64,000 bases of DNA from Hydrolagus affinis. Its lineage: Eukaryota. The DNA is taken from positions 62,001 to 126,000 of the forward strand of contig JAAILG010000151.1 of NCBI GenBank assembly GCA_012026655.1, written 5' to 3'. Within the stretch, counting starts at the first letter, position 1. Each line of letters begins with the position of its first letter. The position numbers and the translations under genes are program-made. This document shows positions 12,604 through 59,588 of the stretch, in pieces. A model generated the notes under the pieces. That model was given only the letters and a program-made list of their open reading frames with translations. It was not told the origin of the DNA and did no database searches.

Positions 12604-15600
12604 CTTCCTCCACCAGGCTCCTCTCTCTGAGAGATCATATTCTGACCCGGGCACCTGATCCACTGAAAATAGACACGTTTTTTTTTCTAAATGGTCTTTG
12701 AGTTTCACTGTAAACAAGCAATGAGAGCAGCATTATGGAACGTTAGACGTTGGGTCATGTGCTACTTACTTTGGGAGTGGATCCAGTTTAGGGACTCCTG
12801 TGTTTTGAAACAGTGGACGTGTTTCTAAGCCCCTCTAGTGTCCTCGGGGATCTACCTGATTTTGTGCTTTGTTTCTCTCTGAGCCCCTGACGTGCCGCAG
12901 TCACTGCTGTGAATAATGGGGAACTAAGAGCCGTTGAAACCCTCATCTGCAAAAAGGGGCGACATTTTACCCCCACCCCCCCCCCCCACTCTCTCCCCTC
13001 CCCCAATTCACAGACTGTCCAAAAGGCTGCCATTGTTGGCACACTGTCTGGTGCTTTGTTGTGTCTGATGGCGGGTGATTGCATTGACCCACCCACGCAG
13101 GTGAGTGATGGGGAGTGTGTGGGCGAGGGGTGGGGGGGGGAGGGGGGTTCTGTCTCCCAGCCTATATCAATCATTGCCGCTCACAATTAAACCTGAGCGC
13201 GCTTGGTTAGGCACAGGTTTCCCCCCCACCCCCCCCCACCCCCTCTTCTGTTGCTGTGGAACCTGCCCTTACCTCTTACCTTAATAGAAACTCCATCGTC
13301 TGTGCGATTGGGGAGTTCCGCAGTCACCTCCCCACACAGCTCTGCCCTCTTAACAGTGTATGATGGGAACATTTTGGGATCTGTATTTCCCTCTCTCTCC
13401 CCACCCCCATCCCCCCTCGCACTATTGTCTGATTATTGTCCTTTACTCTGAAAGGTGACCAAATACTTCAAACGTATCTTATGGTGGTGTGAATGCTGCT
13501 TATTTTGAATGCGGTTTCTGTTCCCCAGGGCTTGAGGCTTCAGTACCTGAGGACAGTAGCTGTTTAATACACTGTGAGACACGGCTAGTAAAAGATTAAT
13601 TAATTTGACACAATCCGGGGCTAGCTACTGTCCTCAGGGAGCTTTAGTCGGCAGTGCCTGGAGCCAGCCTGTGGTCGTGTACAAGAGATTCTTTTGATCG
13701 AAAATCATTGCTTGTGTAGCATTTACAGGCTGCATTACACTCCCAACTCAGTTGAATATGGACTAAATCAGTGTAGAAAAAGCTTTGCATAGGTACAGCG
13801 CTGACTTATTGTGGTCAGGATTAATAGAGACAGGCACTTGTGAATCATAGTAATGCACTTGGTAAATTGAATGGGCTCAAAACCTAAGGTTTTTATGTTT
13901 TGAGCTGACTGTTTTCCTGGCTTGGGCTAATAAAATACTGTAATCTCTTGTGCCTCTTGGACCTGGGATATTCTCCCCCTCCCCTAACCCACAGAAAGTG
14001 TTCAGAGGATTGGAATCTACACAGCGAGTTGTGAAATGGGCAAGCTATTAAACATCAGAGCTGTGAGGTTGCATTTGCTGCCGTTATTGAAAATGGAATA
14101 ACCTTTAATGGTGCTCTAAGACGAACAGGAGTATTTTATATTGCGAGTAGTCCCACTAGAACTTAAAAAAATATGATTTGCCTGTTCTGTCCTTGCAGCA
14201 ACAATTGTTGACTTTAATATCGTTAGGCCGCTGACGCCTGCTCATGAAGTAGGCTCACTCTTTCACAGTGTCTGTGACAGGAGCAGCCTCCTGATTGCTG
14301 ATGTGGATGGAGCCTGGGCTCGCTCGCTCGATCGGGGAATATATAATAAGCTGCTGCTGAACCTCCCATCGACTCCTGTATCTACTGACCAGGGGGAGCT
14401 CTGTCTTCAGCCGGCTCCTCTCTGCACCAGTCAAAGGTGCAACACTGAAACAAAAATCCTCTGTACAGGGAAAGATCTGACAAAGTGCTGCTTTTCTCGA
14501 GCTATGAGAAGCCGTGTACTTACTCTGGACTTTTTTTTTTGCCCATTAGCCTGGAACTTTCAGATGCTCGTAGACATAAAAACCTTCATTAAAGTATCAA
14601 TGACCAATTCCACCTATTGTACTTGTGTGTGTTGTCATGGCGACAACCCATCCATCCTCTGTCTGCAGTGATTTCAGGCAGGAGTAGGCCATATCCATAT
14701 CATCGACCCGTCCGATTCCCGATAAAAGTCCCTTGTTACATTTGTCTCTAAGTCTTACCACCCTCAAATCCCTTTTAGTTGATGAGAACTTGTCTCTTCC
14801 GTTCATTGGAACATTTGCTATGTCATTTTGTTTTGCTATCTTGGGAGTGTTACTGTGGTTTAAGGTTAACCCTTCAAATACTGGAGATGTGCTCCCTCGT
14901 TTGCTAGTTTGGTTTTTACGTTGAGGTAAGTGAGGGTGAATTAGTTACTTAACTGCCCCTGGTGTTTTACTGTTATTACTATTTGCTTGTTTCCACTTTT
15001 TTTATTGTGCTATCACAATTTTTCATGCGCTTAATAGAGGCCGAGTCTGTGAGTTTGCAGCTCCCTGCATTAGGGGAAAGCCTAGCAATGTTTGTTCAAA
15101 ACTGACGTCTCAAATGGCTCGCTGGCGAAGCCCTTTTTACCTGTCTCTTTGCCACGAATCTCCTTGGTCACCTGTCGGCGCTGGCTAACCGAGGGAACAA
15201 TCCGCAACACAACACAGTCTGCCCTGTTATTGTTTTGCTTCTATTTTATTCCTTCGATTTATTCAGCAATTTTTTTTCCCCCTCCTTTTTGCAGATCGCA
15301 CGTCACAATCGCCCTCCTGGCAACCGTTAGAGGTCGGTGAGAGCTGAGTGACTCTCCATAGGGTTGCTCCTCAGCTTGACACCACCGTGCAAATCAACGT
15401 GTCGCTTGTCATTGAGCCCCTTCTCTCAGCCTGGTTCTCTGGGCCAGCAGAACTTCAGCTCTGTCACAGAATCTCACCTGTTAGCCTGACAGCCTGAGAA
15501 TTCATCAAATGTCTGAGGCTGGGACTGCAAGAAAACTGCCCCTCGCCCCCCCACCCCCCCACCACACCACCTCCCCCGCAGCTCTGTGAAACCAAGGCCC

Positions 15601-21950: not shown

Positions 21951-22938
21951 AAAAATAATATGCGTCTCCCAAAGCAAGCTCATTTGTTACACTTCACCGG
22001 AACACACAATTAAAAGAAATAATATTGATATTAGTTTATATTAAATGGGTTTCACAGTTGCCCTCCCAGTCTCTCAGTGGTCTGGTTCATCTCTCGTTTG
22101 GCTAAATGTGGCGGGGGGGGGAGGTATTTAGGTTAAATTAGCCAGTTATCCTTCCACCATCAGCACTGCGCTGGTCACTAGGGCTCACAGATGTAGATGT
22201 AAAATGTAGATTTACATGTTGTTGGGTGGCATCAGATGCCTTGGAACGTCCTCCCGACTTAAAAGGTGCTATACAAGTATCATTTGTTTTTTTGTTGGTG
22301 GTGGTTTGTCTGCAGTTAGTACGATTCTCCTGAACAAGGATATTGTTGTAATACTTTAAGACCTAGGCTTCTTCCTCCCCTCCTCCCCCATCTCTCCCTC
22401 TCACTCCCTCTATTTTCTTTCCTCCCTCATTCCACCTTTTCTCTCCTTTCTTCTCCACTTCAAGAGCTGAGGAACTAACAAAAAGGGCTTCAGTGCTTCA
22501 GTAACTCACCTAAGAATGATGATGAGCTAGTGATGGGTGGGACTGGATACTCAGTGCTGGCATTTTCAGTCACTCCCTCCCAACCAGGGAACCTCACCAG
22601 AAGAGCCTGCAGGCAGCCGAGAGCTACTCTTTACTGCCAGACCGTGAATCAGAAGTTCTGCTGCTCTAACAAGGTTATAGATGTTTGGACTGAATATCGA
22701 ACCTGTAATTTAATCTTGTCTTTAAATTACATCATAAACCACAGGAGCATAGTTGGAATAGTGTGTCATTTGAACTTTGAGGTTCAAATTTACAGGCTCT
22801 TAACTTGCTCAATACCATTTGTTTATTTTCAATCGTTATTCTTATTGTGGATAAAAAAGCCAGAGAGGGATGTCTGAGTCCTTCCCCCTTGTTATACTGT
22901 TTAGTTACCAGATACAACAAGATTGTACATGCAAGCGG

Positions 22939-23070
22939 CAAAATACTACAGCTGGTGGAAATCTGAAATAAAAACAGAAGTCGCTGGGAACACTCAGCAG
23001 CTCAGGCAGCATCTATGGAGAGAGGAAAAGTGAGTCAACATTTCGGATTGATGAGCTATCATCAGAACTG
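22939..23070 (-). mobile_element. Second, decayed copy of the 130-bp element
   Basis: Reverse complement aligns end to end with 54187-54319. Reads CAGTT-CTGATGA...CC-GAAATGTTGACTC. Confidence 0.78.
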
Positions 23071-29152: not shown

Positions 29153-29484
29153 ATAATAATAATAATCCTTGCATTTGATACAGCGCTTTTCACATCTTAT
29201 CAACATCTCAAAGCGCTTCACAGAATATACTGTAAAGTGAATTGACTGTATATTTGTGGGCGAAACACGGCAGCCAATTGCGCACAGCAGCGTCCCCCAC
29301 AAACAGTCGTGGATTGATTGAAATGACCAATTTTTATTAATGTGGTTCTTTGGGGAGGGATTATTATTAGGCGCGTGTGTGTGGAGTAAGGAAACTTGCC
29401 CAAGGTTTCGCCCTGACCTGCCTGGATTCGAACACGGGTCTCACGCTTGTAAGGCGAGTGGTCTCACCACTGAGCTACAGCAGC
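29153..29484 (-). mobile_element. Full-length tRNA-derived SINE (~330 bp) with L2-type 3' tail ending (ATT)n
   Basis: Minus strand reads AGCTGCTGTAGCTCAGTGGTGAGA (A box) and GTTCGAATCC (B box), then a body and a tail ending AAATGCAAGGATTATTATT. Closely similar to the copy at 59262. Confidence 0.92.
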
Positions 29485-32400
29485 TCCAAGATCCTCCCAA
29501 ATTATGCACTTTATAAAAAAAAATCTCGTCTCTTTCATCAAATGTACTGGATGCATGATGATGGCGTCCACCATTCCGGGGTGGAGAAAATAGTGCCAGG
29601 TTCTCTCTCTGTATTCTGGTGGGGGGGTGGGGGGGGCAGGAGATGGGGAACAGCCCAGGAGAAGTGTCTGATTCTCAAGCGCAGCTTCCACTACTTAAAT
29701 AAAGCCAGTTGGGAAAACAAAGGCGTTTTGTTTCAAGCAGTTGTGTAGCTGCCATTCAGTGTCTTCGGGAGGGAAGGAGAGAAACCCTTCTTTTGAAAGA
29801 TCCCCACAAGGTCGATGCACTCCTTTTGTGCCTGATTTTCTTCACTGTTAATTTCTTTTCCCAACAAATCAATCGGCCGCTTGCCTCTCTCGGAGGCCGG
29901 GTGTGCCTGCCGGGGACCTTGCTCCCAAAGCATGGTGATGGGCTTCTCTTGGCCGGCAGCCAGTGTGAGATCTTTCCCTCCACCTCATGTGGAGCCGCCT
30001 GGCCCTGTGATTGGCACCTCGCGCGGCAGCACAACACAGAAGATCTCCCATAAAAAAAACAGTCGCGTCACTGTCTCTGATCACAAATTATAGCATGTTT
30101 TCCCCCAGAGTACGTACAGAATATTGTCTTCTCTCTCCACTTACCCCCCCAAAATCCAACATTTAGTCTGGAGGTCAGGCGGGCACTTTGGGTGATGACA
30201 GGAGATAGTGCGTGAATTTTGTCGGAGCCCTTACACATTTAGGTTGCAGCGATTCAGATGTGAAGCATTTGAATCATTTTTGGTGCGTGAAGACCCTATA
30301 ACAAATTCAGGATCGGTTTCTTCCTTTCTCTGGCCCACGTTCAATCAGACCGTGGCAGCGTCAGAATCTAAATGCCCGTCCATTCGGACGTGTGAAGCGT
30401 CTTGCCTGTATCTGGGAAATATAGATAGATCGCAGCTCGGCACGTTACTATGGGCTGATTGTTAAAAACCCCATCAACAATGACCTCAGAATAAATGGAA
30501 CATTACAATGGGCGATGGTGTGCTCAAATTGGTCTTTCACTCATGAGAAGGATCTTCATCGGCCCTCTCGTCCCTGTGGTGCTCTTGAATTATGTGTCTT
30601 TCACGTTTATGAAAGAACAGTACGAACAGATTGTTGCCCATTTCGACAGCTAGGATTTGTTTTGCTTTGGTTTTTATACATCCAGAGAGAGGTATGTGAC
30701 AGGGTGTTGTGGCTGTGCCAAATATCTGTCATATTTTATAAGACAGTGAATTACAAAGACTATGTACTGTACCAGGCAACCAGATTAGGAGCATTAATGT
30801 GGGTCCGCTATACATCTCGGTCTTGTTTCTCATTCCGTGCCTCCTCACCCACACCCCAAAAATAGTTTTAATGATGCCATTATACAGTCGTCAACTCCCT
30901 GAAGTGTTGTACAGCAACGGCTGCGACTTAACGTAGGAATTTTCTCCCAGTTCTGTCGCAGACTGTAAAAAAAAACAGCTCTCGATGTGTTCAGATGGGC
31001 TGGATTCTCACCACAAAACCCTCGCAAAATCATCTTCCTACATTTCAGACGAGTTTAGAGCAACAACATCGTCTTTTCCCAAGGGTATAATCAGTCTGCT
31101 GTAATATATGTAAGATGTAATTTAGGCTTTTTTTATTATACACTGACAGAAGTGCTGAAACTCCCAGCTCTAAAGGCATTCCAAAGTTTACAAAAACGCA
31201 AAATACTGCAGATGCTGGAAGTTTACAATCTAATCATTACAGAGTTTTAAAGACGAAAAGTGTAACTGAAGTGTGAACATTTTTGCTTTCAATTTAATGC
31301 GGAGCTAGCACTAATTCGCAGCCTGTAATTTCTCTCAAATGCTGAATCATTATCTGATTGGCTTTGTTGCTTATTGTGGAAGGAAATCGTTTTTTAAATG
31401 CAGTTTTTATAAACAAATGTATTTGGGTAAATGCGGCAAATTAGTCTATTTATTTATTCATTTACAAGTCGTCTACATTTCTTTTTCTTTCTTCACCGTT
31501 TATCTCCTTCCTGTTGCAACACTGTGCTGTCTGTGAGGGGTGGACATCCTTTGAAGAAATGAGTGAAATAATTCCTTCGAATGTCTCCGTACCCCTCCAT
31601 CAGTGCCACTGTTCCCATCACAAGGAGCCTCTTTTCGATAACTCCCATTGAGAGAGGACTCTTTCAGCTGGTTGTAGAGTGTTAAAGGTACAAGGGTAGA
31701 GTTACTACACAAGTGCCAGTCAAGCTGCAGCCAGCCAGACCACTTGTCTCAAGCCCAGGCGATGAGCGATGAGGATAGTCCTCTCCTGACCCAGTACAGG
31801 GGCTCAGTAACACTGGTTCATATTTCTCCCTCTCTTTGCTGAAGCCAAAATTGTGTTTTCAAATGTTTGGCTGACATCAATTAAATCAGCCCAGACTTGG
31901 ATCAAGCCTTGAATTCTCCTGCTCTCTGTGGCTCAGCTCCACTTGCAGCAATGCGTGTTTCAATCCGGTCATCCGGGAGACTGGAACGTGGTGTTTGGAC
32001 AGAGTTATTTAGTTAGTCAGAATTGAATCTGATTCAACGAACACCTTGGTTTCCTTTGCCTGCGGTACTTGGTTCATACAGTATCCCATTATCCGCCGAT
32101 GCATGCAGCAGTGTCATGGAGACAGGTGGGAATTAGCCTCACCGTTTAGCAGCCTGACTTGAATTGCCTTATTTTGGAGCAGATTTCTTGTCTTCTCCTT
32201 TGGAGCCCAGTTTCATAACACGAGTTGAGTAAATTTGTATAATCTCCACTCGTATCGGCCTGCCACACACCCAGAGTTGTCGGTGTACGTGTAGATGTCG
32301 AGAAAGCTTACTACACTCCAGCTGAAAAATGCAATAAAACGATCACAAGTGAGACAAATAAATCAATTCCCAAATTCGCAACAACGAATAATGCTTGCAG

Positions 32401-33369: not shown

Positions 33370-33691
33370 AGCCCTGTAGCTCAGTGGTTAGAGCACTCGC
33401 CTTGCAAACGAGTGCTCTAACTGACCTGGGTTCAATTCCCAGCAGGTCAGGGTGAAACCTTGGGCAAGTTTCTTTAATCCACACCTAATAATAATGCCTC
33501 AAAAAAAAAAAAAAAATGTGGTTATTTTCAATCCCAAGACTGTTTGTGGGATACCACTGAACAAAATTGGCTACTGCGTTTTGCCCACAAATATACAGTC
33601 AATTCACTTCACAGTATATTCTGTGAAGCGCTTTGAGACGTCTAGAAGATGTGAAAAGTGCAATATCAATTGCAAGGATTATTATTATTAT
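33370..33691 (+). mobile_element. Full-length tRNA-derived SINE, same family
   Basis: TAGCTCAGTGG A box, GGTTCAATTCC B box, shared body and GCAAGGATT(ATT)n tail. Confidence 0.92.
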
Positions 33692-33988: not shown

Positions 33989-34502
33989 GTTCATTTTAAC
34001 AACCCGGATCTAATGGCTGTTCTACAATATGTAAAAGAGCACGCAATAGTCATTAAGGGAGCAAAACGCACCCAATGTTACCAGCTTCCATCTTGCGAGT
34101 GTTGATGCAAACTATCATTTTGTGCTCACAAGTTACCAATGAAAGATCTGCAGTCAGCAGGGAAGTTCACTCAGAGCTGTAGTGTTATCAGGGTGGGGAA
34201 ACAACAACTGCCTGGTATACCTACATTTGTTGTCCGATAATTCAGTGGTTCGGGATCCTCTTTATGAGAACTGTAACCACTGTATTAACCACTGTTTCCC
34301 CTCCCTGATTTCACTGCAGCACTGAGCTTCCCGACTGTCTGCAGATCCTCGATTAGTAACTTGTGGGCACAAAATGATGGTTTGCGTTGACGCTCGTAAA
34401 ATGGCAGCTGGAAACACTGGGCACATTCTGCGCAGTTAGGGCTATTGTGTACTCGTTTAGATATTGTAAAACAACCATTAGATCACCATTGTTAAAATGA
34501 AC
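33989..34502. repeat. Long imperfect palindrome (arms ~33989-34203 and 34293-34502), probably an old fold-back/MITE element
   Basis: Ends GTTCATTTTAACAA and TTGTTAAAATGAAC. The arms are collinear over ~210 bp at roughly 75-80% identity by eye. Confidence 0.88.
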
Positions 34503-35146: not shown

Positions 35147-35162
35147 ATTTGTAGAAGTGTTA

Positions 35163-35270
35163 GACTCGCATTCCTTTCTCCATAGATCTTGCCTGACCTG
35201 CTGAGTGTTCTGAGAGGTCGGGCAGCATCTATGGAGAAAGGAAAGTGAGCGATTTCTGTTTTTGTGTTAG
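35163..35270 (+). mobile_element. Third copy of the element, with an internal inverted duplication
   Basis: TTTCTCCATAGAT..TGCCTGACCTGCTGAGTGTTC, then its own reverse complement, then TTCTGTTTTTG. Confidence 0.75.
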
Positions 35271-53483: not shown

Positions 53484-54189
53484 AGGAGTTTGGAATCAAT
53501 TCTGCGAAGGCTTCTAATCAAATCAAGTTTTTTAATAGGTCAGATAGTGAAATTGGTTCCTAATCTCATTGCCAGTCTAGGAATTGGGGGTGTTGCCCAC
53601 AACAGCTCTGATTTACTCGCAAAAGGTTAAAGTCTTAGGCACCGACTCTCTCGATTAGTGCACATAATTTGCTTTGAAAATAATTGGATTCATTAAAAAA
53701 TAATATTGAAGTTTGTAGAGACAATGATGGTTAGCAGGAGGCACTGGCTCCTTGTATAATCCTATATCAAAATGTTTTATTGATAACAGCTGTGTTTTGA
53801 ACATGTATTTGGTATTGGAATAGTTTTTCTGCAGTTATTTCATGGTATCTCTCGTGACTGTGTCAGTTTTATGCTTATATAAGGGATCCAGAGCTCTTTA
53901 AACAATCTTGTACTCCAGTGTAGTTGCTGCGTGTTCAGACACAATGGCTGTGATCATATTACTGTCCGGGTTAATCCTTTGAGGTCTGCAGTAGCGCCTC
54001 TGCCTGAAAATGAAAAATATCCTCTATATAATCTCATTATATCTCACCAGTGGCAGCGAGTTACAGCAGTCTTTTCACTAGTGTGAAAGACCTGTAACTC
54101 ATGAATGCTGTGGGGGTAAGAGTTATAGTGGTATTTTGCACTTGTGAAGGAATGGCTGGAGATGGCTATCACTGGTGAGCTATTCTGTT

Positions 54190-54319
54190 CTGACGAAGGG
54201 TTGTAGACCCGAAATGTTGACTCCTTTTCCTCTCTCCATGGATGCTGCCTGACCTGCTGGTTTCCCCAGCAACTTCTGTTTTTGTTTCAGATTCCCAGCA
54301 TCTGTAGTATTTTGTGTTT
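54190..54319 (+). mobile_element. 130-bp Penelope-type short element starting with a hammerhead-like core, with a 14-bp TSD
   Basis: Direct repeat TGAGCTATTCTGTT at 54176-54189 and 54320-54333. Begins CTGACGA-A-GGGT(TGTAG)ACCC-GAAA. Homologous copies at 22939 and 35163. Confidence 0.75.
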
Positions 54320-55264
54320 TGAGCTATTCTGTTTGTTCACTGGCTCAAGGTTTCAGATGAATTGTTTTCCCCCTTAGATGAATCCTGTGTCTGGAAGCTG
54401 ATATTTTATGTACTATTTTTCACATTTATAATATTGATCCAGTGCAAAGAAAGGCTGCACATCACACACTTGCAATCATTTTCTTCTTACAACTTTGCTT
54501 AAAAGACCATTAAGCAACGCGGGCTGGTGGTATGCGTTTCCTCCAATTCCATATCTTATTCAGCTCTCACAAAATCTCGGGAGTCTTTTTGAAGTTGTTA
54601 TGAAGAAATTCGTATGCTTTGAAATAGCAAAGGGCATTTGAAATTGGAGGCATTATTAATAATAAACATCACAGGTAATTGATTTGCAGTTCGAGTGAAC
54701 CCTATTTGTTGGCAAACCCCACCGACAATGTCCGCCCAGCAGGTCCCATTGTGAAATGAAATGAGTGACCACAATAACAACAACAAAATTACATTTCTAG
54801 ATCTCGGGAGGACATCCCGTCCCAAGGCACTGATTAGTTTACCTGGAGGAGTGTTGGTTAGGACAGTGGGAGTGAGAAACTCTTTCTTCTCTTTCCTCGA
54901 GTAAGTACCAAGAGATGAACACTTTGTAGGAAAATTCACTCTCTAATATGGAATGCTTAATTTCTGTGACATGTATTTAAAAAATGCCTATTGCAACCTG
55001 CTGTAATAAAAATTTAATACATAAAGCTAAATATTTTTTATTCCATTAGATAGGCAGTGTTGTGTTTAGCCCATATCCTATCCCCATTTTCGTATCAGTT
55101 TACACATAGCCAGTACCCATGCTCTGAATACTCCAGGAAATCTACTTTAGCTAATTTATATAATTTCTTCATAAATACAGTGTTGCTGGCCTTTATAGAT
55201 AACGTCTCTGTGTAATGCTGCTGTGAGGGACTGCGCTGGACACAACACTTGCTCTTCTGACTGT

Positions 55265-56049: not shown

Positions 56050-56393
56050 ATATTATCCTTGCATTTTGATATAACGCTTACAGACGTTATATAACTTATA
56101 GACATTGATAAAATATCTTATAGTCGTCTCAAAGCACTTCACAGAATATGCTGTAAAGTGAATTGACTGCGTTTGTGTGGGCGAAACACGGCAGCCAATT
56201 GCGCACAGCAGCGTCTCCACAAACAGCCGTGGATTGAAATGACCCAAGTTTGTAATTGCTTTTTTTCGAGAGATTACTGTTATCAGGCATGTGAAGTGAA
56301 GCAAGGAACCTTGCCCACAGTTTCACCCTGCTGGGAATCGAACCCAGGTTTCCTGCTTGCGTGGCGAGTGCTCTAACCACTGAGCTACAGGAC
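56050..56393 (-). mobile_element. Full-length tRNA-derived SINE, variant subfamily with a rearranged tail
   Basis: Minus strand has AGTCCTGTAGCTCAGTGGTTAGAGCAC and GGTTCGATTCC. The body matches the other copies, the middle diverges, and the tail carries extra sequence. Confidence 0.9.
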
Positions 56394-59261
56394 TCCGGGT
56401 GGCATAGTGGGTGGCTCGCTAAACCTCAGTGTATTCCACACGTTGCTTTGCTTTGTGTAAAATCAAGGTTCTGCCGACTCCCCCGTTGCCTTGACCTGAG
56501 TTGTAATTCTGTCCCGCAGTGTTTGGAAACCTTGGCCATATTGAACAATTCAGATCTGCAATCTAACAACCTTGAACAGACTGAACAATCTTAAAAGATA
56601 TCGATAGCTTACCTGGAATGGAATCAGATTTTTTGGTTGTTTGTGTGTGTGTGTCTGTGTGTGTATCTGTGTGTGTGAGCGATCACAAACGCCTGTCATT
56701 TCGTTGGTTGTGGAATGCTGATAGAATGTGTTCGCTGGGAAATGTTTGAGGGAAGTACGGTACGTTGCACGGTTTGGGTTGAAGTAGCTGATGAGAAATG
56801 ACCTTTTCAATATGACTGCGGATTTGAGAAGATCTTATAATTTGATTGCCAGGAGAGCGTTTCTCACAGTATTATTGAAAACTCAATAAATTTGGTCTCT
56901 GTGGCTCCTGCCCACAATCCCCTCGAGCTTGAGACGGCGATGATGGCAGTGTGAGACCTTATTTTAGCAGAATTTCTTAATTGGTATGTGGTCTACATCC
57001 CAAATTGAATATCCAGAGCACAAGTGAAGGTTAACATCTTAGCACTTGTTCTGAACGATTGGGAAATGAGTGGAGCACAGCTACTTTTCGCTCTGTTCCA
57101 GTAAGGTATAGTGTTACAGTGCAAATCGGGTTTGTTCCCTTTAGCGTTAAAGTGATGGGAGAGCTTTCAAGGAGGAGGTTCAAGGTGTTTGTTGTGAAAT
57201 GGGAACTGGAAATAAATGGAACAGATTCAAACACTTGAAGGAAGATTGTTGGTGAAGTTAGGTAAACGTTTTTCCTGTGCGATGCATTCCTTTCAAATCC
57301 CTTCTCTTTTCAAATTAGTCTAATTACATCGGTGGCCTAGTTACACGGTCCGGTCGCTCAACACAACCCAGTTGCGTTCAGATGAGAACGCTGACGTCAA
57401 TGCCAATCTTTGCCAAGCCCAACAACGAAGTTACGGGAACTGATTGATGTGGCTTGAGAAAAGGATAACTCAATCTGTTACAAATAGCGTGTTCAGAAGC
57501 ATCGGTGCCTCGACATATAGGTACCCCAGCTCAAACCCCCCCCCGTTGCTAAAATATATCTCAGGTGGTTACGCATAAAACACTTTGGAAGACACTTTGC
57601 ATATAACAGTGACTCCATGTTCCCATTTCACTTTCCCTTCAAGTGGAACAAAGTTATCTGCCACGAGTCTCTATCATTCTTGTGATTTGTAACATTAAAC
57701 ACACAGCTCCGGAGTTTGACTGCTGCGTGAATCAATTCCTGTATGTTGTAAATGCATTTTGTTTCTCTGCATAAATATTTTAGAAAGGTTTCGGCTCTTC
57801 CTTCAGCTGAGCGAGGGTTTGGAGTAAATTTAGTATTTAACAGCTTCCTGTCAGCATCTGTAGCTCAAAGCCATCAGATGTAAAATCATTAGCAGTTTAC
57901 GCGCATAATACATTCTGACATTTTTCGTTTCATGCAAGACTATGTGTGCATAATGGTGTGTGAGAATTCTGCCTCCTCTTTGTAAGTGTTGAAGGACGTC
58001 ACTTCTGTGTGTTGTTGTTCCCATGTTTGCTCATTCGCCTTTGGAAAGAAAGGCAGGATGATGTGTGTTCCTCCTCAGCTTTTCATGCCTTGTCCAGTCT
58101 GGGTTAATTATTAGAAGGTACAGTACACCTTTGTGAGGTTGTAATAACATTAATAAAATGATGATATTTTTGCGTCTCGGAATGAACGACCTGCTTCTGT
58201 AGATGATCATTTGAGAGAGTTAAGATCGAGGCTCGGCCTTGAAAAGCAAAGCAGATTGAAGGCGATGGAAAGGGCAAGGAGATGTTGGCGAAGGCCGTCA
58301 CACAAGGAGAAGTGAGCTCAGCTGAGACTTTTGCAAATAGAACGGTGAAAATGTAAATCCACTGCTAAACATCCCAACCGCAATTGGGTTGGCAAACTTG
58401 GCACAGCTTCTTCTTTGTTTGGTGCAAGGGGAGTGGAGGCTGGTACGATGGCAAGTTAGATAGTGGCCTCCAATATAGAGAGACATTACATCACTACCTC
58501 AGCGGGCATTTAAACTTCCCTAGTTACCCAAATGTCAAAGCTAAACAGTCTCGGGTATAAACCCTTAACTGTCCCAACGCCTCGGGACGTGAAAGACGCT
58601 GTATAAATGTCATTGGTTGGAGTTGTTGACTGGTTTATGCGTTTTTACTGGAAGTTATGGGTTCACATTAGTCTAAAGGTCCTCATGAAAGAAAGAAATT
58701 AGGAACCAAGTGATCACAAGACATGTACCAGAGGGCTGTTTTACAAACCTTCCAGACTTTACACTAATGCTTTGTTTCTATATTGCAACTTTTATAAAGA
58801 GTGCAGTGTGCTACAGAGCCAGCCTCCCAACATCATCAAAAGAGCCTGAAGTTCATTCACTTGAAGCTGTTCAGTTGGCAGCGTTCATGTGATCAGGGCA
58901 TCTCCAAATAAGATTTGAGAAAGTTAGGTTCCTGAAACTTGAGGGAAGTTTACAAAAGTAAATGTCTATCCCGGGCCAAAGTTGTCATTTCTGACACATT
59001 AATCCCTTTTATTTTTTTTCCAAAACACAGATTTGTTCCATATAATAGAATTCACAAAAGACAAGTTAGCATTCATATGTAATGCCTTTCACATCAGGAT
59101 GTCTTGAAGGTGCTTTATGTGTGTCTGTATTTCTTCTCTTGTTTAACTGTAATGTAACCGAACAAAGGATTAAAAACTCCCAAGTCACTGAATTAAAGTG
59201 ACAGTCCCAAGGTGTGAGTGATTTGCTGTGGGTACTAAACAGCCAAACGTGAGAGCTGTAA

Positions 59262-59588
59262 AGCTTCCTGTAGCTCAGTGGTTAGAGCACTCGCCTTACA
59301 AGCGTAAGAGCTGTGTTTGAATCCAGGCAGGTCAGGGCAAAACCTTCGGCAAGTTTCCTTATTCCACACACATGCCTAATAATAATCCCTCCAAAAAAAA
59401 CACAATAATAAAATTGGTCATTTCAATCCACGGCTATTTGTGGGGACACTACTGTGCACAATTGGCTGCCGCGTTTCATCCACAAATATACAGTCAATTC
59501 ACTTTACAGTATATTCCGTGAAGCGCTTTGAGAGACGTCGATAAGACGTGAAAAGCGCTATATCAAATGCGAGGATTATTATTATTAT
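59262..59588 (+). mobile_element. Full-length tRNA-derived SINE, same family
   Basis: CTGTAGCTCAGTGGTTAGAGCAC head, GTTTGAATCC B box, AGCGCTTT/AAAGCGCT tail stem, (ATT)n end. Confidence 0.93.

Follow-up and report, generated by a model that had tools for sequence, protein, structure and literature searches.

A 64-kb stretch of DNA (the window) contains a short insert whose 5′ portion resembles a minimal hammerhead ribozyme and which is flanked by a duplication. The question raised by this locus is what was inserted and by which route, as the initial annotation had proposed a non-autonomous, retrozyme-like unit mobilized on its own. A direct check of the window demonstrated that TGAGCTATTCTGTT is present twice, at 54176-54189 and 54320-54333; the claimed perfect 14-bp flanking duplication is real, both copies being exact. 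This was the sole exact 14-mer repeated at a spacing of 60 to 500 bp within the window, C-rich low-complexity runs and an N gap aside.

Boundaries of the insert and its parent element

Family positions are numbered here with 0 as the C of CUGA (window position 54190). The insert had been said to start exactly at CUGACGA. This motif does lie at 54190, but AGTT precedes the core in family copies and, hence, the insert need not start there. The 30 closest genomic copies (95 to 100% identical) had AGTT 5′ of the core and TG 3′ of the last base counted as insert in the initial annotation. The terminal-repeat unit spans about −4 to +132, or ~137 bp, with the AGUU of helix I located ~4 nt ahead of CUGA. 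As family copies carry AGTT before the core, the GTT at 54187-54189 belongs to the duplication and the element alike. Together with the TG, 5 of the 14 duplicated bases are common to the element and, therefore, 9 bp are unambiguous target DNA. On the plus strand, the left target-site duplication (14 bp, 54176-54189) shares its last 3 bases, GTT, with the element as microhomology and the right duplication (54320-54333) shares its first 2 bases, TG, with the family tail. The insert itself, a solo pLTR plus tail of a Penelope-like element, occupies 54187-54321 on the same strand and corresponds to family positions −3 to +132, with one base deleted relative to the family.

The core had also been placed within the FBRSL1 pre-mRNA. 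Pfam Auts2 matches were obtained at 7 places on 4 other contigs and at none on this contig, and scans with short motifs detected no FBRSL1 exon. At 13014-13100 of the window, 87 bp on the plus strand are flanked by good splice signals and form a candidate exon.

Other members of the family are present in the window. An older solo copy of the terminal-repeat unit is located on the minus strand at 22938-23069 (−4 to about +127). The same boundaries had been assigned to this copy; it does start at AGTT (−4) but ends ~5 nt early, has no clear duplication, and has a destroyed helix II. A tail-only stub of the same Penelope family at 31194-31218 (minus strand) is accompanied by a 9-bp duplication, TGTAAACTT (minus strand), and a decayed copy with an internal inverted arm at ~35161-35270, for which no strand was assigned, lacks the hammerhead core. 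The window also contains tRNA-like matches at 33370-33450, 56323-56394, 59264-59331, and 29418-29480, which resemble the heads of a tRNA-derived SINE family with bodies recurring across the window, and a ~500-bp MITE-like inverted-repeat element at 33989-34502 with arms that are 78 to 84% complementary.

Some unit copies extend upstream into a GIY-YIG endonuclease frame (E value of 1.3e-4 and 22.6 bits, at the Pfam cutoff). A protein search for this endonuclease yielded 3702 candidates, 150 of which were scored and 30 loci kept; in 19 of these 30, a single alignment covered both the endonuclease and the terminal-repeat unit, which were collinear. When the endonuclease region was searched as DNA, mostly an unrelated repeat at the query edge was detected, and those loci served as background only. 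One near-full element, L123, consists of a partial repeat (+56 to +133), an ORF, a ~270-bp 3′ region, and a full repeat and is enclosed by a 13-bp duplication. The window insert is 93% identical to the 3′ repeat of this element and also matches its 5′ partial repeat; its identity to the best genomic copies is 98%. As the unit is present at both ends of the L123 ORF, it represents the terminal repeat, with tail, of a coding element.

The L123 ORF has the order DKG, RT, YIDD, CxxxxCxxC linker, and GIY-YIG, with an RVT_1 match (E value of 1.5e-6 and 28.6 bits) just below the 29.6 cutoff. The linker reads CQRRRCNTC in L121, L123, and others and fits the CX2-5CxxC definition; such a linker before the endonuclease characterizes the clades Neptune and Nematis (PMC8557442). 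Judged from its predicted protein, the parent is a Penelope-like element with RT and GIY-YIG, of the Neptune/Nematis type, the linker motif being the sole basis for the clade. The features of an EN+ pLTR were found in the family, namely, linkage to an RT/GIY-YIG ORF, a repeat at both ends, an inverted arm or tail, and variable duplications.

Stretches picked by contig number, 400 kb in all, contained 12 insertions, giving a rough genome total of ~30,000 insertions, and a 28-base tail pattern had 3543 exact genomic matches. The family may already be named in Repbase/Dfam. RNA reads from a related organism (run X3) covered the whole L123 ORF, with a strong strand bias in the 5′ half; an L123-type element may be transcribed in that organism, and the strandedness of the library bears on this bias. 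Two further observations concern individual loci. L043 (positions 315-840; near-duplicate, L047) is a ~530-bp internally deleted, noncoding Penelope derivative with the order partial repeat, ORF start, 3′ region, and full repeat. L008 and L009 (G000:C7797) lie inverted on one contig and are identical over at least 2.5 kb, due to either a recent duplication or an assembly artifact.

The hammerhead motif

The letters of the motif were as described in the initial annotation, with CUGACGA at 54190, an extra A at 54197, helix II, and GAAA. All parts are on the plus strand. The 5′ strand of helix I, GUU (AGUU in the family), is at 54187-54189 and is followed by the core and the extra A at 54190-54197. 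Helix II (GGGUU-GUA-GACCC, 54198-54210) has 5 pairs, GGGUU/GACCC, and the loop GUA; it is closed by G-C in this copy and by A-U in an older subfamily. The GAAA (54211-54214), helix III palindrome, and predicted GUU cut site occupy 54211-54218, and the 3′ strand of helix I, GACU, is at 54219-54222. By hammerhead numbering, we take the predicted cut to fall between 54218 and 54219. The motif had been read as a Penelope-type minimal type I hammerhead in which one A is additional and helix III is a palindrome; this was borne out, but the AAUGUU given as the palindrome is a CpG-decayed form of the family AACGUU, helix III being ACGU in the family and AUGU in the window copy.

Conservation was assessed in 167 distinct copies from sets unselected on the core, with L001-L030 and L211-L240 left out of the column counts. 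The cells of helices I and II paired in 89 to 99%, C was present at the helix III CpG site in 130 copies, and the CUGANGA and GAAA boxes were both intact in 94, losses being mostly at CpG sites. The frequent changes were CpG decay, changes in N7 and loop II, and pair-keeping U-G/C-G swaps. Covariation in helix II, proposed earlier as a check, was detected in the closing pair, which changes on both sides between subfamilies: 40 copies comprised 33 A-U, 5 G-C, 1 A-C, and 1 G-U, as one inherited lineage event rather than 40 independent ones. This two-sided change points to selection on the source elements. A scan with the Rfam hammerhead models, also proposed earlier, reported no hammerhead at E values up to 5. 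Folding z-scores were not significant for the hammerhead or the whole unit (−0.2 to −0.8) and, hence, folding energy gives the hammerhead no support, which comes instead from the motif and the covariation.

In vitro, minimal motifs with a palindromic helix III did not cleave as monomers and cleaved at a low level as dimers (PMC4209133); dimer cleavage is also the subject of work by Lunse et al., cited in a review (PMC6765202). An ACGU helix III is too short to form in a monomer. The window copy is predicted to be inactive because its helix III is AUGU and there is no hammerhead neighbor; with helix III CpG decayed, this copy probably does not cleave its host RNA.

Copy ends and the route of insertion

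The first 90 copies among 100 listed of the 3543 tail-pattern matches, all on large contigs, were mapped, with the window's own match skipped (the tail set). The 5′ ends were located at +1 to +98 in 54 copies, at −7 to 0 in 28, and further upstream in 8, with about 20-fold more stops per base at −7 to 0 (hand arithmetic, tail set). Boundary constancy, which the initial annotation had proposed as a check, was observed only in part: there is a pile-up at −7 to 0, but most copies have other 5′ ends, the 54 being shorter. Genome-wide, 2602 exact matches reached −3 and 701 reached −9. No peak of 5′ ends was detected at the predicted ribozyme cut, with only 1 of the 90 tail-selected copies starting at +27 to +31. 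As ribozyme-cut RNA would start at +29, a cleaved template is not indicated.

These ends bear directly on whether the family is a true retrozyme, in which hammerhead-cut, circularized RNA is reverse transcribed as monomers or multimers. Such a reading would fit the conservation of the hammerhead between source lineages, with its two-sided change in helix II, and animal retrozymes derive from pLTRs (bioRxiv 10.64898/2026.07.22.740005). However, the scarcity of starts at +27 to +31 was matched by the absence of tail-to-head junctions (0 in 282 loci examined), and the segment upstream of the cut, which in a cleaved monomer would be located at the opposite end, is retained in the copies. There were 15 same-strand neighbors within 400 bp in the 282 loci, none of them a unit-length array. 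The true-retrozyme reading is scarcely credible and is already largely refuted. Nor is the proposed non-autonomous, retrozyme-like unit supported: what was inserted is an end repeat belonging to a coding Penelope element, most copies start elsewhere at the 5′ side, the 282 loci contain no tail-to-head junction, and young short and long copies are mixed (see below).

The unit-length copies do represent separate insertions with their own duplications, as originally supposed. A duplication of at least 10 bp, with one mismatch allowed, was detected in 20 of 49 solo unit-length copies, against a mean of 0.85 and a maximum of 4 for shuffled pairs. Duplications of unit-length copies were 10 to 16 bp in length. 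The tail set included 14 unit-length copies without an inverted arm, and just 3 of these had an exact duplication of at least 8 bp. Before counting, 14 to 15 loci were dropped as repeats of the same genomic place or as lying on a duplicated contig. Loose ends at the same boundaries were detected in sequencing runs X1 and X3 and mark inserted copies, not RNA ends. Many copies (L005, L010, L014, L023, L028, L157, L244, and L248) apparently lie within AT-rich (TAA/TTA)n SINE tails or bodies, and a target preference for such AT-rich SINE parts is possible.

An inverted arm was present in 47 of the 90 tail-selected copies. Of the inverted arms, 42 were mapped to the 3′ repeat; 28 of these stop at −7 to +2 and 34 have an outer end at +91 to +104, ~30 nt short of the tail end at +132. 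The 3′ ends of the family are, therefore, found at two sites ~30 nt apart. In the window insert, these end points bound the tail region at 54281-54321 (plus strand), with those of inverted arms at ~+91 to +104 and those of tail-bearing arms at ~+132, and they would correspond to start sites of reverse transcription.

The two-armed copies are also relevant to the possibility that solo units arose as solo LTRs do, when the repeats at either end of a full-length insertion recombine. Recombination or deletion has been proposed for the solo pLTRs of Adineta (PMC3846280), and recombination would leave the duplication intact along with the start at −4 and the extra G (see below), single-arm copies being indistinguishable by sequence from recombination products of full-length copies. 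This origin is, however, very improbable for the present family: recombination of direct repeats does not yield two-armed copies such as the 47 found, in which both arms often end near −4 without an ORF between them, the repeats are only ~137 bp long, and only 1 of 20 long stretches fetched (L123) extends back into the 5′ repeat.

The base at −5 was examined in 472 genome matches whose −5 base is not the C of the element, and G was present in 219 (46%). Base composition predicts 27%, and G was present in 10 of 38 matches at other junctions (Fisher P = 0.018), a small control. A was likewise frequent at this position (37 among the first 100 matches listed, by hand count), and C was the commonest base in local loci unselected for the site (16 C, 10 G, 4 A, and 2 T). 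In long copies, the family start at −4 lies within CCAGTTC, which we liken, by consensus, to an initiator (Inr). A 3′ splice site at CAG/TT was rejected, as stopped copies retain the AG and have no common upstream exon. In RNA run X3 (another organism, with reads mostly <95% alike), there was no site where many molecules begin. Five copies with a junction at −4 (L216, L224, L235, L238, and L036) contain a repeat of the TGACGA piece of the core just before AGTT, as if the RT had jumped back onto its template on reaching the end. An extra G at full-length 5′ junctions of L1 has been read as the mRNA cap (PMC11702581), and the Penelope element of D. virilis has its start site within the repeat and an internal promoter (PMC2377424; PMC8557442). 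No description of such a constant 5′ stop accompanied by an extra G was found in the open-access literature.

An ordinary truncation hotspot, due to an RT pause or to annealing of AGTT/GTT to AT-rich target ends, could produce the pile-up at −4 without any RNA end being involved, and GTT, TT, or AGTT is indeed common to the duplication and the element start in L001, L014, L021, and L215. A hotspot is nevertheless improbable, as the RT would meet the hammerhead helices before −4 and not at −4, inverted arms joined without target DNA stop at the same place, and the excess of G is left unexplained.

The insert is, in our favored reading, a terminal repeat that probably arose when the protein of the element primed reverse transcription within the 5′ repeat, on capped element RNA that had escaped cleavage, and ran off at the RNA start. 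The transcript would begin at −4, in the initiator-like CCAGTTC, and the extra G at −5 would be a copied cap. The element transcript would carry the priming signal in both repeats, and hence two product lengths would be expected: priming in the 5′ repeat would generate a ~137-nt cDNA ending at the cap, the unit-length insert, while priming in the 3′ repeat would generate long 5′-truncated copies. Priming on both target strands would result in fold-back copies, and the hammerhead would be a passenger in this insertion step. For an anole element in vitro, internal priming occurs at two tail-bounding sites, with uncleaved RNA as the main template (PMC11167929). On balance, the stubs are somewhat more likely than not the Penelope counterpart of strong-stop cDNA, accumulated by the ten thousand in a vertebrate genome, through two-site internal priming in the 5′ repeat of capped, uncleaved RNA at one or both target strands and with the cap copied as G. 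Nothing relevant on strong-stop products of Penelope-like elements was found in the open-access literature. If so, the genomic copies would map, in vivo, the start of transcription and the two sites of priming, and would show that ribozyme-cut RNA is not used.

Unit-length copies could alternatively be self-transcribed from an internal promoter and recopied in trans, forming a SINE-like non-autonomous family of Penelope origin. The internal promoter of the D. virilis element (PMC2377424) and the ability of pLTRs to act in trans (PMC3846280) are in keeping with such a family, as is the excess of unit-length over longer copies among those reaching the core (28 versus 8; tail set, n = 90), and all 27 arms of the oldest subfamily are unit-length, so that self-amplification may have taken place there. 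The relationships of short and long copies were examined in a tree that leaves out arms whose upstream scores were ambiguous. Among rows chosen without regard to length, short and long labels were unclustered, with 16 label changes against a null of 16.0; the young subfamily exhibited 32 changes against an expected 35.6 ± 2.9. Each of the 14 variants common in the young subfamily is present among long as well as short copies, and three of the five nearest neighbors of the window copy are long copies. Clustering was detected when all 234 arms were included (49 changes against 58.6; 0 of 500 shuffles), a set selected by length and subfamily. The mixing in unselected rows and the common variants are as expected for one source, and a SINE-like family is unlikely, if the least improbable of the alternatives.

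Comparison with known systems

The window insert is in itself unremarkable repeat DNA, with copies numbering in the tens of thousands, and its value is as a record of Penelope insertion, a still poorly understood process. Solo repeats, inverted repeats, and tails of Penelope-like elements are already published. The fixed ends, extra G, and near-absence of starts at the cut site provide in vivo predictions that go beyond the one study performed in vitro. A further implication concerns the purpose of the hammerhead, which is conserved between source lineages, yet cleaved RNA is apparently not the template. No paper on Penelope/Neptune retrotransposons of sharks was found in the open-access literature.

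The window motif is of the same kind as the minimal hammerheads of metazoan Penelope pLTRs (PMC4209133; Cervera and De la Pena 2014). It differs from these in having a 5-bp helix II, a GUU cut triplet, and one subfamily with A-U closing helix II, and the pile-up of ends and the extra G detected here are absent from the description available from that source. Non-LTR retrozymes (bioRxiv 10.64898/2026.07.22.740005), which have been found in one chondrichthyan, are likewise small, noncoding, related to pLTRs, and equipped with a type I hammerhead, and monomers are possible. These retrozymes are, however, defined by tandem units each with a hammerhead, while none were present in the 282 loci and the unit described here belongs to a coding element. 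The supplements of both papers (PMC4209133 and bioRxiv 10.64898/2026.07.22.740005) may contain related sequences.

The parent element is similar to EN+ elements of the Neptune/Nematis type (Craig et al. 2021, PMC8557442; Arkhipova et al. 2013, PMC3846280) in its RT, CX2-5CxxC linker, and GIY-YIG and in the two cysteines located between GIY and YIG. The likeness as described in those accounts extends to partial tandem repeats, inverted 5′ arms, an optional tail of 30 to 40 bp, variable duplications, solo pLTRs, and an Inr-like motif in the repeat. Unlike in the EN+ types, unit-length and fold-back stubs far outnumber long copies in this family, whose clade is assigned by motif only.

The closest parallel for the insertion step is with PAc, a Poseidon element of Anolis (Frangieh et al. 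2024, PMC11167929), for which two start sites bounding the tail were described, as here. Those sites are located just over 100 nt downstream from the hammerhead, and insertion occurs without need of cleavage. The PAc work was performed in vitro with an element of another clade, while the present evidence is genomic and includes, in addition, a 5′ stop at a fixed place together with the extra G.
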